Virus genome (UHGV): UHGV-0317022
Reading direction: 5' to 3' (one strand)
Origin: a virus
DNA: 22,796 bases
Shown piece after piece: positions 2,920 through 18,511 of this stretch (its first letter is position 1; every line of letters starts with the position of its first letter). A program made the position numbers and the translations under genes. The notes under the pieces were generated by a model. That model did not search any database. It was not told where the DNA came from and was given only the letters and a program-made list of their open reading frames with translations.

Positions 2920-3789
<870 letters not shown>

Positions 3790-3867: not shown

Positions 3868-3985
3868 GGACCGGTCTCAAAAACCGCAGGCACGTTGTAT
3901 GCAAGAACGTGCTGTGGCTGGCTGGTGAACTTTCGATAGTGCGAGTATTGAATGATTTCCAGCCGTTATCGATTTTACGTATTAA
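3868..3985. repeat. ~115-bp repeat element, copy A (hairpin plus conserved tail)
   Basis: AAACCGCAGgCACGttGTATGCAAGAACGTGCTGtGGcTGGCTGGTGAACTTtCGATAGtGCGAGTATTGAATGATTTcCAGCCGTTATcGATTTTACgTATT closely matches 5641-5760. The hairpin core is also related to the tfa terminator at 2865-2897. Confidence 0.6.
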
Positions 3986-4207
3986 TTAATGAACAAACCA
4001 CTCGTCAGCAGACTCCCAGGTATCTTTCAGAGTCTCCTGAACAAAAGCATTAGCAGAATCCTTATCTGCGGTGTAGGTAACAGGAAAATCATCGCTATGG
4101 TAGCTTTGACGCTCATCTCCATACCATAAAATATCAAGAGATTACGACTCATTTCCCCATGATTCTTCACCAACCAACAGTTCTATCAACATAAGATGTA
4201 AACTCAT
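3986..4207 (-). pseudogene. Small acidic ORF interrupted by an in-frame TAA (possible gene remnant)
   Basis: Minus-strand reading [75 protein letters not shown]-stop. I verified codon by codon that the internal TAA (4142-4144) is in the same frame as the downstream 52 codons. Confidence 0.3.
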
Positions 4208-4321
4208 AAACTAAGCAAGATAAAAAAATTAACAGAATTTTGTTGATTTCATGTCTGTGGAGTGTTAACTTAAAATGAGACCTGAAGTACTGAAGGTCTT
4301 TGACACACTGGAGAAGCAACT

Positions 4322-4681
4322 ATGTTAACGCCGTTTGGTAAGACAGTAAGAAAAATGCGCATAGACTTGGGGCTTACGCTTAAAAGCATGGCTGAGGCTA
4401 TGGGCATGACCTCGTCTTATCTTTCAGCGATCGAAACTGGTAAAAGGGCGGTCACTAAGCCCGTGCTTGATAGCATCATTAGCTATTTTAATGCGGATGA
4501 AAAACAAAAAGAAAAGCTTATCAGTGCAGCTCGTGACTCTCAGCAGTCAGTAGAGATCAGCTTGTCAGGTAAGAATGGCCACGCTCGTGAAGTCGCAATT
4601 GCGTTCGCTCGTAGTTTTGATGAGTTAAATGAAGAAGACTTCCGTAATTTACGACAGATTTTGAATCGAAAACAGCAGTAG
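4322..4681 (+). CDS. XRE-family helix-turn-helix transcriptional regulator
   Basis: 119 aa with the HTH signature LGLTLKSMAEAMGMTSSYLSAIETGKR. GGAGAAG lies upstream of the ATG, and the stop is 8 nt before the next gene. Confidence 0.8.
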   Translation: MLTPFGKTVRKMRIDLGLTLKSMAEAMGMTSSYLSAIETGKRAVTKPVLDSIISYFNADEKQKEKLISAARDSQQSVEISLSGKNGHAREVAIAFARSFDELNEEDFRNLRQILNRKQQ

Positions 4682-4689
4682 GAGGCGGC

Positions 4690-5211
4690 TTGAGCGGACA
4701 AGATTATCGTGTACCTCCGCAGAATCGTGAATCAATACGTTCTATCGTCAGATCTCTGCGGAGCGCATTTGGTATTACTGGGCTTAAATTCCCTGTAATG
4801 GAGGTAATTGAGTTCGCATTGCCTCAGTTGATCCCGGATTTTGAGTTCCACATTGGTGGTATGAAAGAAATGGGAGAGACGCATGGTCTTACATACCCAC
4901 AGGAACATTTATTGATTCTGCGCGAAGACATTTACGAAGGCGCTTTGAATGGGGTAGGGCGAGATAGGATGACTGCCGCGCATGAACTGGGTCATCTTCT
5001 TATGCACAGGAACATCGCATTTGCTCGTTCTGCCCCAGGGGTAAAAATCCGCCCTTTTGAGAGTAGTGAATGGCAAGCTAAATGTTTTAGTGGTGAGTTA
5101 TTAGTGCCAGCTATGCATGCCAGTATTTTAAAAGGTATGACGGCTGAGGATGTTGCTGAGGCATGCGGAGTTTCATTAGTGGCAGCGCGTTATCAGCTAG
5201 ACAAAATGTAA
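4690..5211 (+). CDS. ImmA/IrrE-family zinc metallopeptidase (HEXXH)
   Basis: 173 aa containing the AAHELGHLLMH (HExxH) motif. It is tightly coupled to the upstream HTH gene (AGGAGG, then a TTG start at 4690), the classic ImmR/ImmA-type pair. Confidence 0.8.
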   Translation: MSGQDYRVPPQNRESIRSIVRSLRSAFGITGLKFPVMEVIEFALPQLIPDFEFHIGGMKEMGETHGLTYPQEHLLILREDIYEGALNGVGRDRMTAAHELGHLLMHRNIAFARSAPGVKIRPFESSEWQAKCFSGELLVPAMHASILKGMTAEDVAEACGVSLVAARYQLDKM

Positions 5212-5364
5212 AAACCCCTTGCTTGGCGCCAACCAGTGCAAGGGGCTTTAGGTGATGAATCCAAGAGGCATCACCACCGTGAACAGCTTCGATAGACAGC
5301 CTGAAATTAACACCTTCAGGGAAGATGTTCAAGGGAAAAATCTCTCTTGGTAAGGAGGTGTTTT

Positions 5365-5469
5365 ATGAATGGGTTTGAAATCAATTGCTTCAAAAGCGGC
5401 GCCCAAAGGGTTCCGTTGGGTTTTCTGCCGTTACCGCAAGGTGCGTGGGAAATCAAAAAAAGTCCTTGA
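5365..5469 (+). CDS. Small ORF (34 aa) with a strong Shine-Dalgarno, function unknown
   Basis: AAGGAGG at 5352-5358, 6 nt before ATG 5365. Translation MNGFEINCFKSGAQRVPLGFLPLPQGAWEIKKSP; a strong terminator lies about 60 nt downstream. Too short to assign. Confidence 0.25.
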   Translation: MNGFEINCFKSGAQRVPLGFLPLPQGAWEIKKSP

Positions 5470-5530
5470 TGCTCATGATTACGGGTACGAGGCGTGGGCA
5501 TTTTTAGTGCGCTGCTAAGGGGTAGTATTT

Positions 5531-5556
5531 AAGGCACCTGCGGGTGCCTTTTTTGT
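5531..5556 (+). terminator. Rho-independent terminator
   Basis: AAGGCACC-tgcg-GGTGCCTT stem-loop immediately followed by TTTTTTG. Confidence 0.6.
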
Positions 5557-5640
5557 ATCCTCACCACCCGATTGGTGTTTTGCTGAGCCTGATAACTACC
5601 AATTTTTGTTATTACTATTCTACTATCGCTCAATCATGAT

Positions 5641-5760
5641 TGGCGGGAGTTGAAACCGCAGCCACGTCGTATGCAAGAACGTGCTGCGGTTGGCTGGTGA
5701 ACTTCCGATAGGGCGAGTATTGAATGATTTACAGCCGTTATTGATTTTACATATTTTTTG
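5641..5760. repeat. ~115-bp repeat element, copy B
   Basis: AAACCGCAGCCACGTCGTATGCAAGAACGTGCTGCGGTTGGCTGGTGAACTTCCGATAGGGCGAGTATTGAATGATTTACAGCCGTTATTGATTTTACATATT; direct repeat of 3868-3985 with a few substitutions. Confidence 0.6.
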
Positions 5761-5905
5761 TATGAAAGGATTAGCGCCTCCTCCCACCGATCCTCCATGG
5801 CTTTACGCCAGTGTCTCTAGGACTGCTATGTGCCAATAGGAGACGCTAGTGACATTATGCTATGTTAACGTATTGCACTAATCCATATTTCGATGGTCAA
5901 GATAT

Positions 5906-6376
5906 ATGAAAGTCAGTCAACTCAAAATCATATCTCACAATGATATATTACCTGCTCTTTTAGGAAGAGTGTTCCATGTTACGCCTGAAAATAATATGTC
6001 TCTCATAAAACAGTCCGGCGCTTTGATCCCAAACTCGGAATTATTGCAGATGTCAAGATTTGGAAACTCATCAAATGGTTTTTTCAGACGGCGTAACTGT
6101 GTTTCCTTTTTTGACTACAGATGTTATGGGACTAAGCATTGGGAAGAACATGCCTATAAATGTTTTCCAACTCAGTTTATAAAACATGTGCCTAATGATA
6201 GAATTTCAATACTATTTCTTCATGAAAGCAAATTCGATAAATTGATCCCCTGGACTGCATGGAAAGCAGAAGAGGCATGGAGTGATAGGGTGGTCCCATA
6301 CGTTGAAACTGGATATAAAGGCATAGTCTCCTTAAGTGAGATTACTGAAGAGTTAATTGTTGGGTTTGACTGCTAG
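5906..6376 (+). CDS. Hypothetical protein (156 aa), AT-rich gene
   Basis: Uninterrupted ORF in a visibly AT-rich stretch. No family recognised with confidence; the N-terminal RVFHVTPENNMSLIKQSGAL is only faintly reminiscent of ART/DarT-like N-termini. Confidence 0.5.
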   Translation: MKVSQLKIISHNDILPALLGRVFHVTPENNMSLIKQSGALIPNSELLQMSRFGNSSNGFFRRRNCVSFFDYRCYGTKHWEEHAYKCFPTQFIKHVPNDRISILFLHESKFDKLIPWTAWKAEEAWSDRVVPYVETGYKGIVSLSEITEELIVGFDC

Positions 6377-6480
6377 CAAAGTCAAAAAATCGCTAACGAA
6401 TGCAGAAGGTACCTACTTATGGACCGGTCTTTTATGGTCTGCTTGCCGCTATCTTTAGGCTCATTAAGTGAGACTTTTCG

Positions 6481-7899
6481 ATGACTCCCATTCCGTCTTG
6501 TGTATTCGATGTATATGCCTTATCGCTTCCCCGAGGTCTGGGATTTGGGGATGATCCTCCAGTTAGCGCTTGGGGTAGTCATGATCATGTCACAGTCTGT
6601 GCACTGACACGTAATTGTCACAGCGGAAAGCATGGCATTCTTATAATGCGGCGTCGTGAGGACGATGTATGGGCAGTGCTACGCTGGGAGTCAGATTCAT
6701 ATAGTGAAGAAGAGGCTTTCACAATTATACGTGAGGCATGCGATGAATCTGCGAGTCGCGTCCCTTTGCCTCCGGGTACACGCAGGCGCGCACCGCTTTG
6801 GGATGTTGAAGGTAGACAACCAAGTAACATATTCAAACTACTTGGACATCCTTGTAGAGCACCTGGCGCATGGATGCTTAATCAATTGTATCTTGCAATG
6901 CCAAATCCGGATACTCACTGGGCAAGAGAGTGCCAGACTGATAACTTTCATACACGTATTTGGGAAGCCATGCTCCTGGCCAGTTTCCGTGAGCAGGGGT
7001 TGTTAGTCACTCAGGAGTACCCCTCTCCTGATTTTCACGTAATAAACAGGTCAGGTGGAGAAGCCTGGATTGAAGCTGTGACAGTTAATCCATCGGACCG
7101 TTACGACCATGCCAGGGCTGAACCTCTGACGTTTCCTTTAAACCGACAAGACAGGGTATCGGGAATTGCGGCTGAACGTTATGCGCGGACCCTAAGGAAT
7201 AAACTGCGCAAGAATTACACTAGTCTCACTCATGTCGAAGGAAAGCCGTTTGCCATTGCTATCGCGGACTTTCACGCTCCCGGTTCAATGATGTGGAGCC
7301 GTGAGGCTCTAATTACCTATCTCTATGGATTTTATGGAAGAGAAAAAGAAATAGATGGGAAGGTTGTGGCTGTAGCAGAAACTGTCGACTGCCTCAAAAG
7401 CGACCCCAAAATCCGTGCTGGTTTGTTTAATTCACACGATAACATTGCTCTCTCGGCGGTTATTTTTTCTAATTCTGCGACTTTATCCAAGCTGAGCAGA
7501 GTACCTGTTTCTTCCGGCGCCTTGATCAAAGGCTACCGGTACATAAGGATTGGTGAGTTCGCTAATGACTCGGCGGGAGCCTTACGTGGCATCCCCTTCA
7601 GTATGGATGTAGCCAGTGACCAATATCGTCGTCTTTGGGAACCCTATAGTTATGAGCCATGGACTTCAGAAATTGAAATTTTTCATAACCCAAACGCGGA
7701 AAACCCTATAAATTCTACGCTATTTCCAGAGGCCACGCATTGGCTTCCAGTTAACGGTGAGATAATTTGCAAACGCTTTTTCAAGCAAAGCATTTTAAAA
7801 AGCCAAACCATTATTCAACACGCAGATGATCCAGTTCCTAATGCAAATAGCCTCACGTTTCAGGAAACTTATGAGGCAGACGATAAATTATTTGACTGA
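6481..7899 (+). CDS. Hypothetical protein (472 aa), function unknown
   Basis: Long ORF with an ATG start, on the same strand as and downstream of the XRE/ImmA pair and the 156-aa ORF. No recognisable catalytic motif by eye. The start codon is uncertain (internal Met candidates exist). Confidence 0.6.
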   Translation: MTPIPSCVFDVYALSLPRGLGFGDDPPVSAWGSHDHVTVCALTRNCHSGKHGILIMRRREDDVWAVLRWESDSYSEEEAFTIIREACDESASRVPLPPGTRRRAPLWDVEGRQPSNIFKLLGHPCRAPGAWMLNQLYLAMPNPDTHWARECQTDNFHTRIWEAMLLASFREQGLLVTQEYPSPDFHVINRSGGEAWIEAVTVNPSDRYDHARAEPLTFPLNRQDRVSGIAAERYARTLRNKLRKNYTSLTHVEGKPFAIAIADFHAPGSMMWSREALITYLYGFYGREKEIDGKVVAVAETVDCLKSDPKIRAGLFNSHDNIALSAVIFSNSATLSKLSRVPVSSGALIKGYRYIRIGEFANDSAGALRGIPFSMDVASDQYRRLWEPYSYEPWTSEIEIFHNPNAENPINSTLFPEATHWLPVNGEIICKRFFKQSILKSQTIIQHADDPVPNANSLTFQETYEADDKLFD

Positions 7900-8203
7900 C
7901 CTGCTTGATTCGCACAGAACGCTGTTAGCAATGTCCGCTCCTCGCTCATAACAGACATTAACTACAGTTATGGTAGAAGGTATGCATGCTGGGTGGGGAA
8001 AGTATGAAGGAAAAGAAGACTGCTGCGCCGTTTGTCGTCACATTTATCTTCATTGGCTATGCAAGTCATAATACAAGGTGGGACAAAACTGAGACACATA
8101 AGGCCTCACAATGGCTTGCAAGGCTTTACATGTTTTGATGTGGTGGGACGTGTGAGCGCAGTGTTGATGGGGTAATACTTTGAATTAGAAGCGGATTCTT
8201 ATA

Positions 8204-8415: not shown

Positions 8416-9630
8416 GTGAAACTCAATGCCCGTCAAATAGACACTGCCAAGCCAAAAGAGAAGGCTTACAAGCTGGCTGATGGTGGTGGTCTGTATCTCC
8501 TGGTAAAACCTAGTGGAGGAAAATACTGGCGCTTTAAATATCGTGTAGCTGGTAAAGAGAAGCTGTTAGCACTAGGTGTGTATCCTGAAGTTACCTTGGC
8601 TGATGCTCGTGCAAAACGTGAAGAAGCTAAAAGGGGTATCGCTGGGGGTATCGATCCGATGGAAGCGAAACGAGAGGAAAAGATTGCCCGGGAAACGCAG
8701 TTAAACAATACCTTCAAAGATATTGCCCTTGAGTGGCACAGCAGCAAATTAAAAAAATGGTCTGCTGGTTATGCTTCAGATATCCTCGAAGCCTTCAACA
8801 AAGATGTGTTCCCTTACATTGGCAAAAAACCAATCGCCGAAATCAAACCACTTGAACTTCTGAATGTGCTGCGACGCATCGAGGGGCGCGGTGCTACAGA
8901 AAAAGCCAAAAAAGTGAGGCAGCGGTGCGGGGAAGTTTTCCGCTATGCAATAGTCACTGGTCGCGCAGAGTATAACCCTGCCCCAGATCTTACTAGCGCG
9001 ATGCAAGGCCATGAATCTAATCATTATCCTTTCCTCACAGCCAAAGAATTGCCTGATTTTTTCAAGGCATTGTCCAGTTACTCAGGAAGTGCATTGGTTG
9101 TTATGGCGGCTCGTCTACTGATTATCACTGGTTTGCGAACTGGCGAACTGCGCGGTGCATTATGGGATGAAATCGATCTCAACAAGGCTATCTGGGAGAT
9201 ACCTGCTTCACGGATGAAAATGCGTCGCCCTCATGTGGTGCCTTTGTCTAAGCAGGCTCTTTCTCTTATTGGGCAGATTAAAGAATTAACTGGTAATTAT
9301 CCGCTTATGTTTCCCGGCCGTAATGATCCAAGGAAAACAATGAGCGAGGCTAGCATAAACCAAGTATTTAAACGCATCGGCTATAACGGAAAGGTTACTG
9401 GTCATGGATTCCGGCACACCATGAGCACGATTTTACATGAGCAGGGCTATAACACCGCGTGGATAGAAACGCAGCTTGCACACGTTGATAAGAACTCAAT
9501 TCGTGGCACGTACAATCATGCGCAATATCTGGACGGGCGGCGCGAGATGCTCCAGTGGTACGCCGACTATATGGATTCGCTCGAACATGGCGGTAACGTG
9601 GTGCATGGCAAGTTCGGAAAATGTGGATGA
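8416..9630 (+). CDS. int: P4-type tyrosine integrase
   Basis: 404 aa with the N-terminus MKLNARQIDTAKPKEKAYKLADGGGLYLLVKPSGGKYWRFKY typical of P4-family integrases. GTG start with GGAGG 9 nt upstream; sits immediately downstream of the tRNA-derived att core. Confidence 0.9.
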   Translation: MKLNARQIDTAKPKEKAYKLADGGGLYLLVKPSGGKYWRFKYRVAGKEKLLALGVYPEVTLADARAKREEAKRGIAGGIDPMEAKREEKIARETQLNNTFKDIALEWHSSKLKKWSAGYASDILEAFNKDVFPYIGKKPIAEIKPLELLNVLRRIEGRGATEKAKKVRQRCGEVFRYAIVTGRAEYNPAPDLTSAMQGHESNHYPFLTAKELPDFFKALSSYSGSALVVMAARLLIITGLRTGELRGALWDEIDLNKAIWEIPASRMKMRRPHVVPLSKQALSLIGQIKELTGNYPLMFPGRNDPRKTMSEASINQVFKRIGYNGKVTGHGFRHTMSTILHEQGYNTAWIETQLAHVDKNSIRGTYNHAQYLDGRREMLQWYADYMDSLEHGGNVVHGKFGKCG

Positions 9631-9758
9631 CTGGTTGCGTATACAGTAGTAGACTTTGAGCGACGAAAGAAAAGGCTGTGTCTAGGGTCGCTCCCGAAAA
9701 TCCGTACACCTCGACGGACTGGTACAGCCACTACAGTAGAGGACGCTGAGGTGTGCGT

Positions 9759-10556
9759 ATGATTGATATTCATGCCGAATTAAACGAATACAAAAAAGAT
9801 TTTATTTCTTTACGTGAATTTCTTGAGGTCGTGCTTAAGGTCGCTGGTGATGATTATGATGTTTCAGATGTCATAACTTGGATACTCAGGAGAATAAGCG
9901 GAGAACATATCCGCCTGTACACAGTAAATGAATTTAAGCTGTTGGAATCTTTTTGTAACCCGTATCGGGATGAATTTGATTATGATGTTCTTTATAGAAA
10001 TCTGAATGCGGTTCGGAAACGTGGTTGTTTACCTGGTGAGAGGGATGAAAATGGTTTTCTGGTGTCCGGTTATTGGGAAGATCCCGAATTTGAGAACATT
10101 GGATTTATAAGGGGTGAAATTTTCGCAATTTTTCCCGATGTCCTTGACGCGTTAACGAAGCTGGAAGGCGCTAACTCTTCTGAAAATGACGAGGCACAAG
10201 GACGCGATATTGAAAAGAAAGAGTTGCGTACAGAGGATGATTTATTATCCCAAATCGCAATGCTGGAAAAAGAAAACGCAGAGTTAAGGGCAAGGATAGA
10301 GCAGTTAGAGCAAGAGCGCCCGATACACTTATATAAATACTGGGATAAAGACCCATTAGCTAAGGCTATTGAGATTAGAAACAGAGAGTGGGCCAATTAC
10401 GATCCAGAAAATGATTTTGCCACTAGGGGAAATCAAGAAGCGATAACCAGGGAGCTTAAGCAGTGGGGGGCAAGTAATGCACTTGCAACGCTCATAGAGA
10501 GGACTGCCTGCCCTATTAACCGAGACAACAGCCAAAAGAACGCAAAGCCGGATTAA
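9759..10556 (+). CDS. Hypothetical acidic coiled-coil protein
   Basis: ORF with GAGG 8 nt upstream of ATG 9759 (the track start at 9753 is a GTG). Contains a charged coiled-coil-like segment LLSQIAMLEKENAELRARIEQLEQE. Confidence 0.55.
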   Translation: MIDIHAELNEYKKDFISLREFLEVVLKVAGDDYDVSDVITWILRRISGEHIRLYTVNEFKLLESFCNPYRDEFDYDVLYRNLNAVRKRGCLPGERDENGFLVSGYWEDPEFENIGFIRGEIFAIFPDVLDALTKLEGANSSENDEAQGRDIEKKELRTEDDLLSQIAMLEKENAELRARIEQLEQERPIHLYKYWDKDPLAKAIEIRNREWANYDPENDFATRGNQEAITRELKQWGASNALATLIERTACPINRDNSQKNAKPD

Positions 10557-10570
10557 CGCACCATACCGCA

Positions 10571-10714
10571 TACCCTGAGGGTGATTTACTGTTACCCTGA
10601 GGGTATTTTTTTATCTTCCCCGTCAATTTTACCATCACCCTTAGGGTAGATTTCCTCCCGATTACCATCACCCTTAGGGTTAATTTCCTTCCGGTAACCA
10701 TTAGGCCTGAGGGT
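10571..10714. promoter_or_regulatory. Cluster of five near-palindromic CCCT(G/T)AGGG sites upstream of alpA
   Basis: TACCCTGAGGGT at 10571-10582 and 10593-10604, CACCCTTAGGGT at 10637-10648 and 10669-10680, GCCTGAGGGT around 10704-10714. The two CACCCTTAGGGT copies sit in a longer direct repeat TACCATCACCCTTAGGGT(A/T).ATTTCC. Confidence 0.55.
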
Positions 10715-10783
10715 ATGAAAATATTCGTTATTTCTGTGCCAGGATTACCTCGTCAAATTGAGTAGACGTTATGAGGTAAATAT

Positions 10784-10981
10784 ATGTCAAATACGCTTAT
10801 TCGTTTAACAGAAGTTCAGCGTAGAACTGGATATAGCAAGGCATGGATTTATCGCCTTATGGGGCAAGGTAAATTTCCTGCATCAGTTAAAATTGGCTCG
10901 CGAGCTATTGCTTTCGTTGAGAGTGAAATTGACGAGTGGATTAATCAGCGTATTGCGGAATCACGCGGAACAGCTACCTGA
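10784..10981 (+). CDS. alpA: AlpA-family transcriptional regulator (excisionase-like HTH)
   Basis: 65 aa: MSNTLIRLTEVQRRTGYSKAWIYRLMGQGKFPASVKIGSRAIAFVESEIDEWI, the characteristic AlpA signature. Confidence 0.85.
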   Translation: MSNTLIRLTEVQRRTGYSKAWIYRLMGQGKFPASVKIGSRAIAFVESEIDEWINQRIAESRGTAT

Positions 10982-11058
10982 TTAAATGGCTACGGGGCTA
11001 TTTCCCCCAGCTATCCACCAGCAAATAAAAGTAACTTAATTCGATAGCAGGAGTTTTT

Positions 11059-11859
11059 ATGAAATTTCCAAAAACGCCCGTACAGGGGCGGGGCTTCGTT
11101 CGGCCTGAAAACCAGAATCTGCAAAATTTCGGCGAAATTATCCCGATTATTTCCGGCGTTATTGGCGGGAGTGAAACCACTATTGTTAGCGCCAGAGCGT
11201 TACATAAGGCGTTAGGTGTAGGGCGCGTTTTCCGTTCGTGGATCAAGGGGCGCATTGAAGAATACGGGTTCACGGAAGGCGTGGATTATGAGGTTGTTGA
11301 ATATTTGAGCCGCCCCGATCCGGTGAGCGCAAAATCTCGCCAGCAAACCGCTCTTGAGTACATCATCACAGTGAACATGGCGAAAGAACTGGCGATGGTC
11401 GAACGTACCGAACAGGGCCGCGCCGTTCGCCAGTACTTTATCAAATGCGAGGAGGAGCTACACAAGGTTGCGCCTGTTCGTTCCGCAGCGTTACGCCGGG
11501 AACTGAAAGCCCGTATCACAGTTGCCAGCTACTTTAAGCCAATGTGTGCCGCGCTGGAGGCGTACCGGGCTGAACTGGGTAAAAACACACTCCAGCACCA
11601 CTACACCACGGAAGCGAACATGCTGGCGCGTATCGTACTGGGTGGCATGACTGCAAAACAGTGGGCACTGGCGAACGGCATTACAGGCGAACCACGCGAC
11701 CACATGAGCACGTTGCAGCTTGAGCACCTTTCTTACCTTGAGCAGAGCAATATCACGCTGATTGAGTTAGGCCAGGACTACCACCAGCGGAAGGCTGAAT
11801 TAATTCGTCTTTCGCAGCGTTGGTTAGCCCGTCGCATGGAGGAAAACAGCCATGTGTAA
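11059..11859 (+). CDS. AntA/AntB-type antirepressor-domain protein
   Basis: N-terminal SARALHKALGVGRVFRSWIKGRIEEYGFTEGVDYEV fits the AntA-domain pattern. AGGAG lies 6 nt before the ATG. Confidence 0.6.
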   Translation: MKFPKTPVQGRGFVRPENQNLQNFGEIIPIISGVIGGSETTIVSARALHKALGVGRVFRSWIKGRIEEYGFTEGVDYEVVEYLSRPDPVSAKSRQQTALEYIITVNMAKELAMVERTEQGRAVRQYFIKCEEELHKVAPVRSAALRRELKARITVASYFKPMCAALEAYRAELGKNTLQHHYTTEANMLARIVLGGMTAKQWALANGITGEPRDHMSTLQLEHLSYLEQSNITLIELGQDYHQRKAELIRLSQRWLARRMEENSHV

Positions 11860-13159
11860 CGCTCTGACCGTTACAAAAAGAGAAAGCGCCCCGTTGCCGG
11901 AGCGCCTTTGTGAACGAATAGCCTACTGCGCCATATTGCTTACTGTCTACGAGGCAGATTATAGCGTTGTGGTCGCACAGAGTGAAGGCGCTGATCACCG
12001 TTACTACAGCACGCCAGAAATGCAGAATATTTTGCTGCAAAATGTCGTTGGTCACACTGTCCGGAAAGCAAAAAATTTTGCTGGTGGCGCGACTGATGCG
12101 ATTTTGTCAGGTCGCCAGGTGCTGATCAATCTGATGTCTGATTTCGTTCTGGATAAAACAAAGGCGACCGCAGAGGGCCGCCAGTGGGAAAGCTACATAC
12201 TTGAACGCATCGCCAACAATGCCAGATTTGCGGCTGGTGGGCAATGTGTCAGCTTTGCACCAATGACTCTATGTTTAACTGAGGGTCATTATGGTGAATA
12301 TGCTGGCTTGCTGGTGGGCTATTCCTGCTCTTTAACATTGCCATGCCGCGATGTTTTCCAGGTATGCGACCCCATTTTTGTGCGCCTGTACTCTTTAAGG
12401 AATTTCTCAAGGATAAACGCACAGGGCGCGAATCTGTTTGACTCATGCTCGTACGCTATCTTTCTGCGCTGTCTTTTCCGTGCCGGTGATGGTGTATTGG
12501 TTGATTCTTTGTTGGTCATGGCGCAGCCCTGTAAAACGATGCACCGTAGTTCCTCACACCACGGCGCTGGTGATGGTTACTCCTGTTCTTTGGCCTTGCG
12601 GCGCTGGCGGTATTCAACTTCTCGCTTTAATGCTGCTGTTACAAACTGCCCTGTACTTTCACCAGGCATTTTTACCGCCTCAACATTGTTCATAACTTCA
12701 TGCGGAACCCTTGCCGCAACTGTTTGTGATTTTGCGTTTACTGCTTTTGTCGCCATGTTGTGTACCCCTTACAAAAAACAAATGCAGTATGCAGGAAAAA
12801 AAATAAGTGTTCAACACTTGACGTGTTTAACACCTGGGCTTAAATTGGTGTTCAACACCTTGTTGATGCAAGGTGCAGAAACGACAACGCCCCGCAGTGG
12901 TGGCACACATGCAGGGCGTCTAACCACCAACGATAGCAAGAGTATCGAGGTAGCTATGAGAAATCATACCACACACCCGCAAGGGCGGGACTCGCACAAC
13001 CTGAATAAATACATCTGGCGTTTTATCGCCCTGAGCACGGCACAACCGCGCGTAATTCACATCGAGGCCACCAGCGAACAGGAAGCACGCCAGCAATCTC
13101 CTGATGGCTGCGTGATGGTATTCGCAGCCCGTATTCGCCAGGAGGTGGAACATGTGTAA
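11852..13159 (+). CDS. Open frame of 435 codons; probably not one protein (N-terminal ~130 aa plausible, middle looks non-coding)
   Basis: The start overlaps the previous stop (ATGTGTAA). The N-terminal ~130 aa look protein-like, but the middle translates as low-complexity C/S/T-rich sequence and crosses an AT-rich promoter/operator region. A possible frameshift or missing stop cannot be resolved here. Confidence 0.3.
   Translation: MCNALTVTKRESAPLPERLCERIAYCAILLTVYEADYSVVVAQSEGADHRYYSTPEMQNILLQNVVGHTVRKAKNFAGGATDAILSGRQVLINLMSDFVLDKTKATAEGRQWESYILERIANNARFAAGGQCVSFAPMTLCLTEGHYGEYAGLLVGYSCSLTLPCRDVFQVCDPIFVRLYSLRNFSRINAQGANLFDSCSYAIFLRCLFRAGDGVLVDSLLVMAQPCKTMHRSSSHHGAGDGYSCSLALRRWRYSTSRFNAAVTNCPVLSPGIFTASTLFITSCGTLAATVCDFAFTAFVAMLCTPYKKQMQYAGKKISVQHLTCLTPGLKLVFNTLLMQGAETTTPRSGGTHAGRLTTNDSKSIEVAMRNHTTHPQGRDSHNLNKYIWRFIALSTAQPRVIHIEATSEQEARQQSPDGCVMVFAARIRQEVEHV
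12319..12519 (-). CDS. Small basic protein (66 aa), possible regulator
   Basis: Minus-strand ORF MTNKESTNTPSPARKRQRRKIAYEHESN...; looks more protein-like than the overlapping plus-strand frame. Confidence 0.3.
   Translation of the reverse strand: MTNKESTNTPSPARKRQRRKIAYEHESNRFAPCAFILEKFLKEYRRTKMGSHTWKTSRHGNVKEQE
12576..12756 (-). pseudogene. Small DNA-binding-like protein gene with an apparent +1 frameshift
   Basis: ATG at 12756-12754 with AAGGGG upstream gives MATKAVNAKSQT, then a stop after 19 codons. The adjacent frame continues VAARVPHEVMNNVEAVKMPGESTGQFVTAALKREVEYRQRRKAKEQE to a stop at 12578-12576. One extra A near 12718 would explain the break. Confidence 0.3.
12805..12860. promoter_or_regulatory. 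Divergent promoter/operator region with three GTGTT(C/T)AACAC sites
   Basis: GTGTTCAACAC (12807-12817), GTGTTTAACAC (12823-12833), GTGTTCAACAC (12848-12858). A sigma70-like -35 TTGACG (12818-12823) and -10 TAAATT (12841-12846) with a 17-bp spacer overlap the sites. Confidence 0.5.
12956..13159 (+). CDS. Small hypothetical protein (67 aa), first gene of a coupled small-gene operon
   Basis: GAGG 5 nt upstream of ATG 12956; MRNHTTHPQGRDSHNLNKYIWRFIAL... Lies downstream of the promoter/operator region. Confidence 0.45.
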   Translation: MRNHTTHPQGRDSHNLNKYIWRFIALSTAQPRVIHIEATSEQEARQQSPDGCVMVFAARIRQEVEHV

Positions 13160-13376
13160 TGCAACATGGCCTGATGCAGCGGTAGACGCTATCAAAACGC
13201 TGATGGATTCACTTATTGAGATTTCTGCTATCGCTGGTGTGGCGCATAAACACGCAGCCAGAGAATCAGAATGCATCTCCCATTATTTAGCATTTGTGCA
13301 GCTAAAAGCCGATCAGGCACTGGATAAGGCCGGAAAAATTATCATGGCTGATGTGCAGGAGGTGCACCATGCATAA
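13152..13376 (+). CDS. Small hypothetical protein (74 aa)
   Basis: Start overlaps the previous stop (ATGTGTAA); compact phage-like gene packing. Confidence 0.45.
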   Translation: MCNATWPDAAVDAIKTLMDSLIEISAIAGVAHKHAARESECISHYLAFVQLKADQALDKAGKIIMADVQEVHHA

Positions 13377-13734
13377 CCTGTCAATTTCTGACCTTAACAG
13401 CATTCAGTTTGACGAGAAATTTACCGGGCAGTTGCTGGTCAATGTGGAGAACGGGCGCATAGTGCGTAATTACCACCTGCCGGATGGTGCAATTGCCGGA
13501 AGCGTTGAAGCATTGCTGGAACTGGCGGAACGTGCGCGACTGATTAAGCCGTCAACGAGCCATCACGATGATGATCTGCATTTTACCGGGCGTATGGTGA
13601 GTCACTACGAAAACGGCGTTGAAGTATCCCGCGAACGGCTGCGTGATGATTGCTGTTTCGGCACACTGCCGGAATTTATCGAGTTGCTGACCAGTTGCGG
13701 TTATCAGGTCATTCAGGGGGGTAAACATGCGTGA
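13369..13734 (+). CDS. Small hypothetical protein (~121 aa)
   Basis: ATG 13369 preceded by GGAGGTG; overlaps the previous stop (ATGCATAA). The track start at 13351 is upstream of this likely start. Confidence 0.45.
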   Translation: MHNLSISDLNSIQFDEKFTGQLLVNVENGRIVRNYHLPDGAIAGSVEALLELAERARLIKPSTSHHDDDLHFTGRMVSHYENGVEVSRERLRDDCCFGTLPEFIELLTSCGYQVIQGGKHA

Positions 13735-13960
13735 TGATCGTTTTAATTCCCTGAAACGGGAATTTGATGGCGCACCGGAAGATGCAGCGGGCGCATTGTT
13801 GAGCGTTGCTGACATGATGAAAGCTGCATATTTTCTTATCAATACCAGTGGCTACAAGTCAGAGGGTGAAATGATTCTTAGTATTGCGTCGGACTATGCG
13901 GAATATGTGGCAGAGACGCGTTACAGAAGAAAATTCACGGAGGATGTAAGCCATGCATAA
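13727..13960 (+). CDS. Small hypothetical protein (77 aa)
   Basis: Start overlaps the previous stop; acidic protein. Confidence 0.45.
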   Translation: MRDDRFNSLKREFDGAPEDAAGALLSVADMMKAAYFLINTSGYKSEGEMILSIASDYAEYVAETRYRRKFTEDVSHA

Positions 13961-14153
13961 TCATGAAGCGCATGTACCCGTAGTGCTTAATGTGCCAGAT
14001 GATTTCACCGGACGCGTACTGGTTTACCTGGATAAAGGGAAAGTGAAATCACAATGCCGACTGAAAAGTAATGAGATTGTTGGTTCTCCTGAATTTTTTT
14101 CTGAACTTTGTATTCGTGCGGAAATAAAACCGGAACTGCTGACAGGAAAATAA
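13953..14153 (+). CDS. Small hypothetical protein (66 aa)
   Basis: GGAGGATG upstream; start overlaps the previous stop. Confidence 0.45.
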   Translation: MHNHEAHVPVVLNVPDDFTGRVLVYLDKGKVKSQCRLKSNEIVGSPEFFSELCIRAEIKPELLTGK

Positions 14154-14157
14154 AACC

Positions 14158-14448
14158 ATGAAAAAGAAAAATTCTGGCTTTACTGCCAGCGGCCTCTCTC
14201 GGCCTGAAATCCGCCCCGGTGATATTTCCCGGGACACCAGACGCGGGGGACGGGTGGTTATTCGTCACGTTACGCCAGGCAATATCACCTACCGCCGTGA
14301 GGCTTACGAATATGACTGCGTAATGCCGCGCCGTCAGTTTGATCGTGATTTTATTCTGGTGGAAAACAAACAACAGGCAGTGGCGAGACGTGCAGCCACG
14401 AATATTAAAAAAATCCGGGCAATGTTGGTTGCGGGAGGTAAGAAGTGA
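14158..14448 (+). CDS. Small basic hypothetical protein (96 aa)
   Basis: ORF immediately preceding the primase gene; its stop overlaps the primase GTG start (GTGA). Confidence 0.45.
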   Translation: MKKKNSGFTASGLSRPEIRPGDISRDTRRGGRVVIRHVTPGNITYRREAYEYDCVMPRRQFDRDFILVENKQQAVARRAATNIKKIRAMLVAGGKK

Positions 14449-16250
14449 AAAACGCACCGAGTCTAAAATATCAGCCGAAGGATAAATTCACTGAGGTAAT
14501 CATTTTTGCCGGGACGGATGCTTACGCCCATGCTCAACACTGGATTGAAAGTGAAGGACGAAAACACGGCGATAACGTGCCTCCTGTTTACCTGGGGCCA
14601 AAGCAACTGGCAGACCTGGCGAATATCCGCATTATTGACGAGAAACGCCGTTTTGCGCGTGTCTATATCGCGGGGGAGATAGAGCCAATCCAGATCAATA
14701 CTATCGCTGAAAAGCTGGCGCTGGCTGGCGTACAGGAGGCGAAATTATACAAAGGTATCACCGACCAGGAACCGGAGAACTGGCGCGACTACCTGCAACG
14801 GATCCGCGAACAGGCTGAGCACGGGGAAGTTTCAGTGATGAAATTAGCTACAAAAAATAGTGGTCTACCCAAGCCTGCATTAAATCAGATGGGAGCCAGC
14901 CAGAGAGGGGAAGTGTTACTTGAACATTATGGAGGAGCACTGGCGATAAATGATGATTCTGATGTAGTTCACCATTACAACGGAATTGTTTGGGAGCCTG
15001 TATCTGATAAGGAACTCCAGCGGTCTATGGCGAAGATTTTTATTGATGCCGAAATTAGTTATTCGCAAAACGCCATTAAATTTGCCGTAGAGACAATGAA
15101 ATTGAGTCTACCTGTTATGGGGGGAGCGGACAGAAATCTTATTGGGTTCAGTAACGGTGTTTTTGATATCAGGACAGGAAATTTTCGGGAACACAACAAA
15201 AATGACTGGTTGTTAAATGCCAGTGAATTACCGTTCAGCCCGCCAGAAGAGGGGGAAACGCTGGCAACACATGCGCCGAATTTCTGGAAGTGGTTGCGTC
15301 GTTCGGTGGCGGATAATGCTCGTAAAGCGGATCGCGTACTGGCGGCATTATTCATGGTACTGGCGAACCGGTACGACTGGCAGTTATTCCTTGAGGTAAC
15401 GGGGCCGGGCGGAAGCGGTAAAAGTGTGATGGCGGAGATTTGTACCATGCTGGCGGGTAAGGCCAACACAGTATCGGCAAGCATGAAGGCTCTGGAAGAC
15501 GCAAGGGAACGCGCGTTAGTAGTTGGCTTTTCGCTGATTATCATGCCGGATATGACTCGCTACGCTGGCGATGGTGCAGGAATTAAGGCAATTACTGGCG
15601 GCGACAAGGTGGCAATTGATCCGAAACATAAAGCCCCCTACTCCACACGTATTCCGGCAGTAGTGCTTGCGGTAAACAATAACGCCATGTCATTCAGTGA
15701 CCGAAGCGGGGGGATCTCGCGTCGTAGGGTGATATTTAATTTCTCTGAGGTCGTACCGGAGAACGAACGCGATCCCATGCTGGCGGAAAAGATAGAAGGC
15801 GAACTGGCGGTAGTGATTCGCCATTTGCTAACACGATTTACCGACCAGGACGAAGCTAAAAGACTACTTTATGAGCAGCAAAAATCAGAAGAAGCGCTGT
15901 TGATAAAGCGCGAAGGTGATTCACTGGTGGACTTTTGCGGCTATCTGATGTCGTTGGTTAAATGTGAAGGAATGATGGTGGGCAATGCGGAAATAGTGCC
16001 ATTTAGCCCGAGGCGATACCTGTATCATGCTTATTTAGCCTATATGTCAGCGCATGGCCTGGGAAAACCAGTATCACTGACACGCTTTGGTACTGATATG
16101 CCAGGAGCTATGGCGGAATACGGAAAGGAGTATAAGCGGGCTAAATGCACTAAAGGCCCGGATAAAGGGCGAGTGATAACAAATGTTCTGTTAGATGATG
16201 ATGCTGATGGCTGGTTGCCAGCAGCTACAGGGATTAACGACAGAACATAA
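14445..16250 (+). CDS. Replication primase-helicase (P4 alpha / D5-like, SF3-type NTPase)
   Basis: 601 aa with Walker A VTGPGGSGKSVMAEI and a Walker B-like hhhhPD segment. GGGAGG 6 nt before the GTG start; followed directly by an iteron-containing origin, as in P4/PICI replication modules. Confidence 0.85.
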   Translation: MKNAPSLKYQPKDKFTEVIIFAGTDAYAHAQHWIESEGRKHGDNVPPVYLGPKQLADLANIRIIDEKRRFARVYIAGEIEPIQINTIAEKLALAGVQEAKLYKGITDQEPENWRDYLQRIREQAEHGEVSVMKLATKNSGLPKPALNQMGASQRGEVLLEHYGGALAINDDSDVVHHYNGIVWEPVSDKELQRSMAKIFIDAEISYSQNAIKFAVETMKLSLPVMGGADRNLIGFSNGVFDIRTGNFREHNKNDWLLNASELPFSPPEEGETLATHAPNFWKWLRRSVADNARKADRVLAALFMVLANRYDWQLFLEVTGPGGSGKSVMAEICTMLAGKANTVSASMKALEDARERALVVGFSLIIMPDMTRYAGDGAGIKAITGGDKVAIDPKHKAPYSTRIPAVVLAVNNNAMSFSDRSGGISRRRVIFNFSEVVPENERDPMLAEKIEGELAVVIRHLLTRFTDQDEAKRLLYEQQKSEEALLIKREGDSLVDFCGYLMSLVKCEGMMVGNAEIVPFSPRRYLYHAYLAYMSAHGLGKPVSLTRFGTDMPGAMAEYGKEYKRAKCTKGPDKGRVITNVLLDDDADGWLPAATGINDRT

Positions 16251-16277
16251 TACGAAATTTATAAGCTGAAACGTAAA

Positions 16278-16613
16278 GGTAGACGGTTGGTAGACAGATA
16301 CACTTAACCCTCTACCAACCATCTACTAATTAATGTTTTGAATTATATAGGTATTTTTAATGTGGTAGAGAGGTGGACAGTTTATTTTATATTTCTAAAC
16401 CACGGGGGGGTATATAAAAACAGATAGTTATGGGTTCATTTTTAAAATTTTTATTTTAACTATCTACACTGTCTACTATTTATTAAAAATCATTAATTAT
16501 CAATGTATTAATACGGTAGACAGTTGGTGGACAGTTTGCAGATTGTTTTTTTGTTATATGTTAATAACATTAAATAAATCAATCAATTATATCGGTAGGC
16601 AGTTGGTAGACAG
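16278..16613. repeat. Iteron-type replication origin
   Basis: At least five copies of GGTAGACAGTTGGT(A/G)GACAG-like 20-mers in both orientations (16278-16297, 16311-16327 inverted, 16363-16380, 16461-16478 inverted, 16514-16533, 16594-16613), separated by AT-rich spacers, directly downstream of the primase-helicase gene. Confidence 0.7.
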
Positions 16614-16621
16614 TTGTAACG

Positions 16622-17823: not shown

Positions 17824-17862
17824 TGGTCGTGATTTTTTGGTGAAAAAAGAGAGGTAGTAACA

Positions 17863-18447: not shown

Positions 18448-18511
18448 AAAACGTGCTGATTTCAGCCCTGTCGGATTTGGCGGGGCTTATTTCTTATAAC
18501 CGGATAACATT

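Follow-up and report, generated by a model that had tools for sequence, protein, structure and literature searches.

The repressor and protease genes at positions 4322–5211 of UHGV virus genome UHGV-0317022 (the whole analyzed stretch of 22,796 nucleotides, hereafter the window) are part of a widely conserved three-gene prophage cassette. This compact unit (approximately 4229–5556, Table 1) comprises a putative promoter and operator, a gene for an XRE-family HTH protein, a gene for an M78 metallopeptidase, a structured leader, a gene for a 49-aa basic protein and a terminator. On balance, we favor the view that the pair forms the regulatory center of an autoregulated, self-contained protease/repressor switch, with the small protein as its output.

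Table 1. Features of the cassette, its borders and the neighboring defense genes (window coordinates).
Feature	Position	Strand	Evidence or details
Left border of cassette	3881..4119	-	dinI-like 3' UTR/terminator (3881-3983) and dinI-like pseudogene (3986-4119)
Putative promoter and operator of cassette	4229..4271	+	conserved inverted repeat; promoter assignment putative
XRE-family HTH repressor candidate, 119 aa	4322..4681	+	Pfam, PADLOC, AlphaFold2, conservation
Single-domain M78 (ImmA/IrrE-type) zinc metallopeptidase, 173 aa	4690..5211	+	TTG start; Pfam, PADLOC, CapP structure match
Conserved structured leader RNA between peptidase and small ORF	5212..5368	+	covariation, MFE, conservation
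Third gene, 49-aa basic protein MGLKSIASKAAPKGFRWVFCRYRKVRGKSKKVLDAHDYGYEAWAFLVRC	5369..5518	+	wobble, RefSeq, PHROG, AlphaFold2
Intrinsic terminator closing the cassette	5531..5556	+	AAGGCACC-TGCG-GGTGCCTT then TTTTTGT; terminator scan
Right border of cassette	5653..5755	-	second copy of dinI-like 3' UTR repeat
PD-T7-1-like defense protein, 472 aa, outside cassette	6481-7899	same strand as pair	PADLOC 2.8e-69
PD-T4-3 GIY-YIG nuclease, upstream neighbor	2920-3693	divergent	PADLOC 8.7e-140

The initial annotation had recognized an XRE-HTH gene and an ImmA/IrrE metallopeptidase gene here. Profile searches with Pfam and PADLOC confirmed both domains, and the two open reading frames, also called in RefSeq (WP_000957296 and WP_023277297), fill exactly the span that it gave. 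The peptidase matches Pfam Peptidase_M78 (PF06114, COG2856; 1.4e-9, 38.2 bits, cut-off 22) and the PADLOC capP profile (6e-11), the latter over profile positions 56–147 of 242 only. The best solved-structure match of its family profile is CapP (7T5T; 7e-14, aligned to residues 81–181 of 291 only), and a weak match to IrrE was also obtained (3DTE; E 0.0025). The HELGH motif is intact (residues 98–102, window positions 4981–4995), and H98, E99 and H102, together with E127 and Q129 of a downstream SEWQA motif, are invariant in 29 homologues; the HEXXH motif and downstream Glu, a predicted ligand, are those of the M78 family. The protein ends at residue 173 and, as the span of the CapP match also indicates, has no GAF domain. 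A cysteine-switch loop is likewise absent, with no Cys between HELGH and E127; the only one nearby, C132, is not conserved.

The HTH protein matches Pfam HTH_31 (9e-11) and HTH_3 (2e-10) and, over its full length (residues 2–116), the PADLOC capH profile (3.6e-10). Its AlphaFold2 model (pLDDT 80.8) predicts a five-helix HTH domain (residues 4–74), a disordered linker (75–85) and two C-terminal helices (86–97 and 104–116). The modeled fold resembles generic XRE proteins, including full-length DdrO and the N-terminal domain of CapH; sequence similarity to the latter's solved structure is weak (E 0.015). The tripeptide F95-A96-R97, located in the first C-terminal helix, is invariant. A cleavable region, on which the initial reading of the pair as a switch depended, is therefore plausible in the linker and this motif, judging from the model and from conservation.

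The two genes are tightly coupled, as had been proposed. They are separated by 8 nt, and an AGGAGG sequence ahead of the peptidase gene overlaps the stop codon of the HTH gene. A full-length HTH-protein homologue lies directly upstream of the M78 gene in 37 diverse loci, with gaps of −17 to +26 nt where starts are correctly called. Because these loci were fetched via the peptidase alone, the pairing is non-random, and the sequence comparison identifies it as a unit conserved across phyla.

In the initial annotation the pair stood upstream of two uncharacterized genes. These do lie on the same strand, but the 472-aa ORF is PD-T7-1-like, and a nearer third gene was missed. This small ORF is preceded by a Shine-Dalgarno (SD) sequence (AAGGAGG, 5352–5358) and by an out-of-frame ATG at 5365, 4 nt ahead of the real start. 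Third-codon wobble follows the 5369 frame and conservation stops at its stop codon; an alternative frame of 37 codons from the ATG at 5365 was rejected, since wobble fits only the 5369 frame and the length of the other is not conserved. The ORF is present in RefSeq (WP_023277296) and its product belongs to PHROG 33859, a family of unknown function (1.5e-26). By these sequence criteria, the region codes for a protein under purifying selection. The protein is basic and rich in W, F and Y residues, and its AlphaFold2 model (pLDDT 90.4) predicts a small beta-sheet with a short helix. It had no match in Pfam, NCBIfam or PADLOC, and none in the PDB, including by fold comparison. Neither a toxin domain of the type I/II families nor a transmembrane helix was found, the model being a soluble beta-sheet without a hydrophobic helix.

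Matches to the small protein in the representative library form 90 clusters of stand-alone proteins of 41–128 aa, with one exception (P0239), a repetitive protein of 985 aa that we took as a low-complexity match. Where peptidase identity is 60–80%, the small protein is 88% identical, compared with 66–67% for both regulators, and in a Vibrio copy (L040) the values are 78 and 30%. The small protein is thus better conserved than either regulator and, on these identities, evolves more slowly; the metagenome and viral loci were picked by similarity to it, which inflates its apparent conservation there. The protein is also found where the pair is missing, for example behind phrog_2602 beside a cI/S24 repressor, or after an AAA ATPase gene.

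The leader DNA between the peptidase and small genes is visibly better conserved than its flanks and than the peptidase protein (alignment columns of relatives with 64–66% peptidase identity). Two hairpins are well defined in the covariance-model alignment (A6): hairpin 1 pairs 5215–5222 with 5238–5245 around the loop GGCGCCAACC (88% paired, 6/6 pairs covarying), and hairpin 2 pairs 5251–5257 with 5269–5275 (100% paired, 7/7 covarying). A possible third hairpin (5300–5305 with 5315–5320) is uncertain, being only 64% paired in the alignment. Downstream, GUUCA (5327–5331) has two possible partners, namely the start-codon region (5366–5370; 95% paired in A6, 3 of 5 pairs covarying) and UGAAC (5280–5284; 85% paired, 4 of 5 covarying). 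The covariation score reaches 0.438, whereas shuffles give 0.169 and slid controls do not exceed 0.12; the MFE of the leader is −57.2 kcal/mol (z = −2.9). Rfam gave no match at E ≤ 1, and at E ≤ 10 only chance-level matches of less than 15 bits. The two mutually exclusive pairings thus rest on covariation, and may gate translation of the small ORF.

A conserved pyrimidine tract in the leader (AUCUCU, 5340–5345) is complementary to the SD (5354–5359). Strong sequestration of the SD was considered and, after partition-function controls, lowered to a modest effect (mean P(unpaired) 0.33 vs 0.40 for shuffled upstream sequence, p = 0.0017); the SD helix is invariant and so carries no covariation evidence. 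Beyond the close leader group, the covariance model (R1) retrieved just two additional loci; leaders differ at more distant loci, and the motif as modeled is thus specific to one clade. A promoter scan found no internal sigma-70 promoter in the leader and hairpin 1 has no clear U-tract; we therefore assume that the small ORF is co-transcribed with the pair.

Upstream of the HTH gene, an operator-like inverted repeat, TTAACA-N6-TGTTGA (4229–4246), overlaps a −35-like TTGATT (4243–4248), which is followed by a 17-nt spacer and an extended −10-like TGT-TAACTT (4263–4271). The promoter consensus scan did not call this candidate promoter. Escherichia, Kosakonia, Klebsiella, Serratia and Morganella all keep the palindrome, as TYAACA-N6-TGTTRA, ahead of the HTH gene, and in Vibrio its two halves have changed jointly (AACCA-N5-TGGTT). 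It is the sole conserved operator-like palindrome, occurring once in the whole window, where no copy with two or fewer mismatches was found close to the promoters of neighboring genes. No LexA box was seen upstream of the HTH gene by eye. An 11-nt match, CTATGTTAACG, at 4320 and 5860 was considered as a shared operator and rejected, because the copy at 4320 is the conserved beginning of the HTH coding region, the one at 5860 falls within the independently mobile downstream module, and the frequency of TGTTRAY is not above chance.

A strong terminator hairpin (5531–5550) followed by a T-run closes the cassette, and hairpins of different sequence occupy the same site in the Kosakonia, Klebsiella, Serratia, Escherichia sp. 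and Morganella copies. The borders are formed by a direct repeat (D1) of 103 nt, whose copies are 91% identical. The dinI-like pseudogene at the left border, also annotated as such in RefSeq, is 5'-truncated, and the end of its translation resembles an intact dinI-like gene in locus L257; in L257 and L258 the intact gene follows the right-border repeat and the prophage then ends. In the window, the PD-T7-1-like module, consisting of a 156-aa ORF and the 472-aa ORF, is instead joined at about 5825–5835, consistent with BLAST break points (similarity to L257 ends at 5750 and that to L004 at 5835, and that to L003 begins at 5825). The 472-aa product aligns to PD-T7-1 over residues 113–446 (profile positions 120–447 of 452) and also matches PD-T7-5 (2.6e-35) and phrog_8571. 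An integrase-bearing satellite adjoins from 8416 onward.

These modules travel separately. A Qin-like prophage (L003) has the 156-aa and 472-aa module but no pair, as does L005, where the module follows a type II restriction-modification (RM) cassette; conversely, the pair occurs without the module in L002, L004, L257–L260, Kosakonia, Klebsiella and Serratia; the two are found independently in other genomes at 99–100% identity. They co-occur in only 4 of the 5,426 complete E. coli genomes, each with the 472-aa ORF disrupted by IS3, and none of the 37 distant pair loci has a homologue of either downstream ORF. The proposal that the pair gates the two downstream ORFs is therefore not supported: the third gene, the terminator and the junction intervene, the modules are distributed independently and the operator is single-copy, which together argue against co-regulation from the cassette. 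Regulation of these ORFs in trans by the small protein is nevertheless conceivable. The pair does sit in a prophage accessory (defense) hotspot, as initially suggested, and sequence comparison identifies the PD-T7-1-like and PD-T4-3 genes as independent neighbors in it. Their adjacency reflects shuffling of cassettes at dinI-derived repeats rather than co-regulation, and reading such genes at a prophage-end hotspot as co-regulated is an easy annotation error that is corrected here.

The HTH-M78-leader-small ORF unit was found in Enterobacterales, Vibrio, Alphaproteobacteria, Synergistota and Clostridia. The leader (about 158 nt) and the small ORF, then a terminator, are constant companions of the pair, and the pair lies upstream of the small gene in 136 of 163 loci with enough upstream DNA; the small gene is absent from some branches of the pair family, for example the DUF4417 loci. 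The usual site of the cassette is a prophage end, where it often lies convergent to the integrase and lacks other cargo. Among 97 distinct loci, 55 have a convergent next gene, about 23 have an integrase as the next gene, and in 24 a co-oriented gene lies within 300 nt, some of these encoding defense or toxin functions (type III RM, TIR effector, DarT, DUF3800); most of the 97 have no co-oriented cargo. In Kosakonia and E. coli the cassette stands alone beside a prophage integrase; it is the last element before prfC in L257 and L258, and in Serratia lies alone between the chromosomal genes yicC and nupC with no mobile element nearby. Elsewhere its neighbors are elements unrelated to one another, among them lambdoid tail ends, P4-like satellites and prophages whose integrases are of the Arm-DNA-bind_1 type. 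In relatives of the pair, downstream genes of the same orientation encode an HNH-SAVED (Cap5) CBASS effector, a type III RM methylase, DUF3800, DUF4417, a TIR effector and DarT, and in some relatives the small gene stands between the pair and the defense or toxin cargo. Literature searches for the three-gene cassette or the small protein returned nothing specific.

The closest described system is CapH/CapP, known from two preprints (Lau et al., 2022, 10.1101/2022.04.27.489752; Calloji et al., 2026, 10.64898/2026.05.16.725639). In CapP, the C-terminal GAF domain and the peptidase domain form an ssDNA groove and, in most but not all CapP, a cysteine-switch loop occludes the active site; on stimulation by ssDNA or DNA damage CapP cleaves CapH, which is cut at F82|R83 in its first C-terminal helix (Lau et al., 2022; Calloji et al., 2026). 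The cassette shares a putative XRE HTH repressor with a C-terminal region that, by analogy, would mediate dimerization, an M78 zinc peptidase, matches to both PADLOC profiles, an F-x-R motif in the helix equivalent to the one cut in CapH, and a location in defense hotspots. It differs in the size of the peptidase (173 aa, compared with 291 aa for the solved CapP chain 7T5T), which has neither GAF domain nor cysteine-switch loop, and in its HTH-then-protease order on the same strand as the next gene, whereas capH/capP is usually divergent from its target operon. It further has a conserved third gene and a structured leader, and usually no immune operon; in the window, the terminator, junction, independent neighbors and single operator argue that it does not control the promoter of an adjacent one. 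The CapH/CapP-type assignment made initially thus stands for the family in a broad sense, including relatives upstream of CBASS, RM and TIR cargo, but not for the GAF domain, the cysteine switch or an attached immune operon.

Other M78 systems resemble the cassette in part. ImmA of ICEBs1 and Gram-positive temperate phages is likewise a small single-domain M78 protease (about 169 aa) that is encoded on a mobile element, is co-transcribed with an XRE repressor (as we assume here) and has a link to DNA damage; ImmR is cut at F95|M96. Unlike ImmR/ImmA, the cassette pair is probably not the master repressor of its element, since carrier prophages have cI/S24 and Cro; it has no integrase in its operon, includes the small protein and leader, and is found mainly in Proteobacteria. 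[quoted passage not shown] However, IrrE has HTH and GAF domains, is chromosomal and controls a DNA-repair regulon, whereas the cassette protease is single-domain and mobile. The predicted Xre-COG2856-toxin systems (Makarova, Wolf and Koonin, 2009, PMC2701414) share the proposed logic of the cassette, in that a protease removes an Xre repressor or antitoxin and a third stress-response or toxin gene completes one mobile operon. There, the predicted third component is a RelE or PIN toxin, and COG2856 and Xre are often fused in one protein, whereas the third component of the cassette is an unrelated 49-aa basic protein, at most a putative toxin.

In the mechanism that we propose, the HTH protein would dimerize via its two C-terminal helices and bind the inverted repeat over the −35, keeping the whole operon low. 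A stress or infection signal would activate the protease, which, on the model of CapP/CapH, ImmA/ImmR and IrrE/DdrO, may cut the repressor at or next to F95-A96-R97; with no GAF domain, the protease must have a different trigger and mode of sensing from CapP, in which ssDNA binds in a groove. Derepression would yield more of the single transcript, and the leader would additionally gate translation of the last gene through the two GUUCA pairings and the pyrimidine tract opposite the SD. The 49-aa protein would be the only conserved output. Cleavage, operator binding and a phenotype of the small protein are all predictions of this scheme. The small protein is quite possibly a toxic or phage-inhibiting effector, making the cassette a three-component TA-like or abortive module; there is a smaller chance that it is a trans-acting regulator or antirepressor, and a slim one that it is a cofactor or sensor for the protease.

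Several other arrangements were weighed against this switch. In one, a CapH/CapP-type regulator would put the 156-aa ORF and PD-T7-1-like gene under DNA-damage or infection control, in cis or via the small protein as an activator or antiterminator acting across 5531–5550. CapH/CapP are documented regulators of diverse immune operons, relatives of the pair precede the HNH-SAVED, type III RM, DUF3800, DUF4417, TIR and DarT genes, and the genes here are adjacent on one strand. Even so, we consider such control unlikely, given the strong terminator and 350 nt of dinI-derived spacer, the recombination break point between modules that are near-identical elsewhere without each other, the single operator, the rarity of the combination with its invariably IS3-disrupted 472-aa ORF, the usual lack of co-oriented cargo and the typically divergent orientation of canonical capH/capP. 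The 24 loci with a nearby co-oriented gene, in some cases a defense or toxin gene, do speak against our preferred reading: the module could instead be a portable regulator of downstream cargo, with the small protein belonging to the regulator. It is distinctly unlikely that the cassette is an ImmR/ImmA-type immunity module controlling induction of the lambdoid prophage or of the integrase-bearing satellite, the small protein serving as an antirepressor or helping excision. Carrier prophages encode a separate cI-type HTH+S24 repressor and Cro at another site (L086–L088), the integrase, when present, is convergent and outside the operon, the operator occurs once, the Serratia copy has no element nearby, and the same cassette type adjoins unrelated elements; these observations weigh against the ImmA-like size of the protease, the XRE repressor, the HTH-then-protease order, the frequent proximity to an integrase and the known DNA damage response of ImmA/ImmR systems.

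The remaining alternatives concern the small protein itself. As a basic, aromatic-rich nucleic-acid binder it might act in trans as the missing sensor, replacing the GAF domain of CapP and switching the protease on. This idea gains from the absence of the GAF domain and cysteine switch that underlie the ssDNA dependence of CapP and from the near-constant presence of the protein beside the GAF-less clade, yet it appears improbable, as the protein diverges far more slowly than the protease, unlike tightly co-evolving partners, also has unrelated upstream partners, and is encoded by the most tightly translation-gated gene, at the 3' end of the operon that it would activate, an unexpected place for a sensor. 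Alternatively, the locus could be nothing more than a two-gene Xre/COG2856 toxin-antitoxin pair, in which the protease is the toxin, the HTH protein serves as its antitoxin and the downstream region is a mere 3' UTR or stabilizer. We regard this as very improbable: the downstream region is protein-coding under purifying selection (codon wobble, PHROG family, pLDDT 90) and its product is better conserved than the pair. Xre-COG2856 pairs have been predicted to be TA-like modules, although the same 2009 analysis favored a regulatory protease that targets an Xre repressor within three-component systems (PMC2701414), and a Brucella ZnMP/HTH-Xre pair has been investigated as a TA system.

Returning to the autoregulated switch, we tentatively suggest that the HTH protein, GAF-less M78 protease, riboregulated leader and 49-aa protein may constitute a previously undescribed three-component prophage system present in several phyla. 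Switch and two-state leader would jointly gate a small, very strongly conserved effector that hits a conserved cellular or phage target (in abortive infection, exclusion or cross-talk of co-resident prophages), with the leader representing a new motif among cis-regulatory RNAs. Overall, switches of the ImmA/ImmR, IrrE/DdrO and CapP/CapH kind are the means through which mobile elements and immune operons are known to sense DNA damage. The cassette is probably a minimal protease/repressor switch that differs from them in three respects, having a GAF-less protease, usually no immune operon, and an unannotated 49-aa protein behind a covarying leader. If the small protein is the output, this compact unit (about 1.3 kb) could reveal the products that such switches deliver in prophages and the trigger of a GAF-less M78 protease.

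The window is E. coli DNA from the end of a lambdoid prophage, in a hotspot of defence genes, which bears out the prophage accessory region proposed as the setting by the initial annotation. The HTH-metallopeptidase pair it placed at 4322-5211 was also recovered: the coordinates of both genes match ORFs exactly, and profile searches for the domains identified HTH_31 (9e-11) and HTH_3 (2e-10) in Pfam and, over the full length, PADLOC capH (3.6e-10) in the HTH protein, and Pfam M78 (1.4e-9) and PADLOC capP (6e-11) in the peptidase, whose residues H98, E99, H102, E127 and Q129 are invariant among 29 homologues. The tight coupling claimed for the two genes is evident in their 8-nt spacing, with AGGAGG overlapping the HTH stop codon, and in a survey of 80 loci from one-genome-per-species contigs that used the peptidase as the sole query. 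Here, a full-length HTH homologue lies directly 5' of the peptidase in 37 diverse loci spanning Gammaproteobacteria, Clostridia, Spirochaetota, Planctomycetia, Eggerthella and Synergistota. Judged from gene neighbourhood, the association is not due to chance.

Features of the prophage end and adjoining element (positions in the window)
Feature	Position	Details
Tail fibre gene	230-2266	
Tail-fibre assembly gene	2266-2850	
Accessory hotspot	after tail-fibre assembly gene, before integrase	
Partial copy of dinI-like gene 3' UTR/terminator	2860-2887	
PD-T4-3, GIY-YIG protein	2920-3693	divergent, upstream of pair; PADLOC 8.7e-140
Copies of dinI-like gene 3' UTR/terminator at cassette borders	3881-3983, 5653-5755	91% identical
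Operator-like palindrome TTAACA-N6-TGTTGA	4229-4246	
XRE-family HTH protein gene	4322-4681	119 aa
M78 (ImmA/IrrE) metallopeptidase gene	4690-5211	173 aa, TTG start
Leader hairpin directly after peptidase stop codon	5215-5222 with 5238-5245	88% paired, 6/6 covarying
Leader hairpin	5251-5257 with 5269-5275	100% paired, double changes in 7/7 pairs
Leader helix, GUUCA with start-codon region	5327-5331 with 5366-5370	95% paired, 3/5 covarying
Alternative helix, same GUUCA with UGAAC	5327-5331 with 5280-5284	85% paired, 4/5 covarying
Invariant pyrimidine tract AUCUCU	5340-5345	
Third gene (49-aa protein)	5369-5518	+ strand
Intrinsic terminator	5531-5550 + T-run	
156-aa ORF	5906-6376	
PD-T7-1-like, 472-aa ORF	6481-7899	PADLOC 2.8e-69
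Integrase of second, satellite-like element	8416-9630	
Second integrative element	8416-19800	
PARIS-like pair	20321-22289	AriA 331 aa, PADLOC 2.6e-43; AriB 326 aa, DUF4435, 3.6e-22

While family and setting stood, the proposed target did not. The pair had been read as gating two uncharacterised downstream ORFs in the manner of ImmR/ImmA or CapH/CapP, and four lines of sequence evidence argue that it does not. The modules are independent: the block of 156-aa and 472-aa ORFs (5825-7948) occurs at 99-100% identity in a Qin-like prophage without the pair (L003) and behind a type II RM cassette replacing it (L005), and the pair block (3884-5835) is followed elsewhere by IS1 (L002), by a different hypothetical gene and AbiTii (L004), or directly by a dinI-like gene and chromosomal prfC (L257 and L258). 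Of 5,426 complete E. coli genomes, only 13 have the cassette and only four also have the PD-T7-1-like gene, with an IS3 interrupting the 5' part of that gene in all four. A strong intrinsic terminator and a dinI-derived spacer of about 350 nt separate the cassette from the two ORFs. The operator-like palindrome, which overlaps a -35-like hexamer, is the sole conserved element of its kind and is present once in the window, where a search allowing up to two mismatches found no copy near the neighbours' upstream regions. Finally, all 37 distant pair loci lack homologues of the GIY-YIG protein and of the 156-aa and 472-aa ORFs.

Copies of the dinI-like 3' UTR/terminator mark every cassette border in the hotspot, and the RM cassette of L005 sits between the same repeats. 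These repeats are probably substrates for cassette shuffling or exchange by homologous recombination.

Close homologues of the pair (85-91% amino acid identity) in Kosakonia, Klebsiella and Serratia share with the window a single called neighbour, a 49-aa ORF about 158 nt past the peptidase. In an alignment of the region 3' of the peptidase from six genera, conservation begins at the peptidase stop codon and goes no further than that of the 49-aa ORF, after which each genus has a terminator hairpin of differing sequence. Because substitutions fall on third codon positions of its frame, the ORF is a real gene. Its basic product is hypothetical in RefSeq (WP_023277296) and has relatives in 90 clusters (full HMMER pass, 1.84 billion representatives), all stand-alone proteins of 41-128 aa except a 985-aa repetitive protein (P0239) that we take for a low-complexity match. 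Homologues follow the pair in Vibrio (78% identity, vs 30% for the peptidase) and are also present in Wohlfahrtiimonas (73% vs 33%), in Acetomicrobium and Komagataeibacter, in several Clostridia and in a Roseobacteraceae MAG.

The small protein, used as query against metagenome and IMG/VR contigs, yielded 268 and 111 relatives, and M78 and HTH genes lie directly 5' of the small gene in 136 of the 163 loci with enough upstream DNA. Of 84 distinct triples, 71 show higher conservation of the small protein than of the peptidase (88% vs 66% identity in the 60-80% peptidase bin), with the caveat that the metagenome and IMG/VR collections were selected via the small protein. Among 97 distinct loci with at least 1.5 kb downstream, 55 have a convergent next gene and about 23 have a phage integrase in that place; only 24 have a co-oriented gene within 300 nt. 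From companionship, conservation and this census, the predicted functional unit is three genes, typically located right where a prophage ends.

In six loci with distant relatives of the pair (L028, L033, L044; L016, L035, L043), small basic ORFs unlike the 49-aa one in sequence occur about 100-350 nt past the M78 gene, with motifs such as V.V.PYKRSDGT.V.GHRRS.PN or RYKRRRFGRVEDVC.HFRS.P; having a third protein that is small and basic may be more general in this pair family. In L237 (2421-4162) and similar IMG/VR loci (L244-L256), the small protein belongs to a more divergent branch (about 54% identity). It follows a 170-190-aa protein of the uncharacterised PHROG 2602, directly downstream of a cI-type HTH+S24 repressor, and the M78 pair is absent from these loci.

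The 158-nt leader between peptidase and small gene is, as read from alignment columns, visibly better conserved than its flanks and the peptidase protein, even at 64-66% peptidase identity. A covariance model built after aligning 20 leaders was used to realign 23 sequences, giving an overall covariation score of 0.438 (0.169 for shuffles, at most 0.12 for slid controls). The loop of the hairpin next to the peptidase stop codon is conserved (GGCGCCAACC). Since the same GUUCA can pair with either of two partners, covariation suggests a leader with two mutually exclusive states. The pyrimidine tract lies opposite the SD, and because both sides are invariant their pairing gives no covariation evidence; in partition-function controls the excess of SD pairing is modest (P(unpaired) 0.33 vs 0.40, p = 0.0017). 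The folding energy of the window leader is -57.2 kcal/mol (z = -2.9), and the leader matches no Rfam family. Most leaders conserve an out-of-frame ATG located 4 nt ahead of the true start (5365-5371; ATGnATG or ATGTG), better placed relative to the SD than that start; it is conserved across genera and the frame it opens is not. This ATG may act as a decoy start, so that less of the small protein is translated. No internal promoter was found ahead of the small ORF, so we assume transcription from the operon promoter.

The architecture of the HTH protein appears to fit CapH/DdrO/ImmR, its AlphaFold2 model comprising an HTH domain of five helices (4-74), followed by a linker modelled at low confidence (75-85) and two C-terminal helices (86-97, 104-116). 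ImmR is cut at F95|M96. In the window protein, the residues F95-A96-R97 do not vary in either of two independent homologue sets; they belong to the first C-terminal helix and correspond in place to the CapH cut site F82|R83 (Lau et al., 2022, 10.1101/2022.04.27.489752; Calloji et al., 2026, 10.64898/2026.05.16.725639), which by analogy makes them a candidate cleavage site. The lack of any cleavable site, which the initial annotation named as refuting its reading, is therefore not what the sequence shows. Among solved structures, CapP 7T5T is the closest to the peptidase family (E 7e-14), with a match limited to the peptidase domain (residues 81-181 of 291); the window protein stops at residue 173. 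CapP combines peptidase and GAF domains that bind ssDNA in a shared groove, usually with a cysteine-switch loop (same papers). Because it lacks both the GAF domain and the loop, the window peptidase is, by its sequence, ImmA-sized and not CapP in the strict sense. Canonical capH/capP is usually divergent from its target operon (same papers), whereas the window pair is co-directional and there is usually nothing to regulate. A 2009 prediction of three-component Xre-COG2856-toxin systems assigned the third place to RelE or PIN toxins (PMC2701414), to which the 49-aa protein is unrelated.

The pair family could still be a portable regulator of downstream cargo, given members upstream of HNH-SAVED, type III RM methylase, DUF3800, DUF4417(+DUF6883), CAP12-type TIR effector and DarT genes. 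However, shared location in defence hotspots explains such adjacency equally well, and in at least one locus (L036) the small ORF and the cargo still have a terminator-like hairpin between them. A DUF4417 protein follows a homologous HTH-M78 pair on the same strand in nine loci of Clostridia, Spirochaetota and Planctomycetia (L012, L019, L022, L024, L030, L031, L037, L041, L042), with a DUF6883 protein next in three, and is a recurrent uncharacterised cargo of the pair family.

As for the two downstream ORFs, the 472-aa one is PD-T7-1-like, and only the 156-aa one remains uncharacterised as described, being the sole neighbour without a match in Pfam, NCBIfam, PADLOC or PHROGs. It accompanies the PD-T7-1-like gene every time (window, L001, L003, L005), perhaps as a partner in defence that has gone unrecognised. 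RefSeq gives the PD-T7-1-like protein as 341 aa vs the 472-aa open frame (in L001, 9820-10982); the longer form fits better because the 452-position PD-T7-1 profile aligns from residue 113. The second element encodes a P4-type integrase (Arm-DNA-bind_3), an AntA antirepressor domain protein, a D5-type primase-helicase and a ProQ/FinO protein and looks like a phage satellite or PICI-like island, with the PARIS-like AriA/AriB stretch (32% GC) at its far end.

Sequence and comparison show three co-directional genes that are independent of their neighbours, one conserved palindrome on top of the -35 element, a protease whose active site is intact, the FAR motif, a covarying leader and a terminator. 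In the mechanism we propose, the operon would be autoregulated by its HTH repressor. A stress or infection cue would activate the GAF-less protease, and cleavage of the repressor at FAR would abolish dimerisation and derepress the operon, with the leader as a putative additional translational gate and the 49-aa protein as the presumed output. That protein is tentatively an effector or toxin; a trans-acting regulator or antirepressor is a more doubtful reading, and a protease cofactor, or some other role, is in either case improbable. We found no description of this three-gene cassette in the searchable literature, whose silence is no proof of novelty. The main finding is an unannotated third gene and RNA leader, which point to a variant of the protease/repressor switch that is compact, widespread and as yet uncharacterised.
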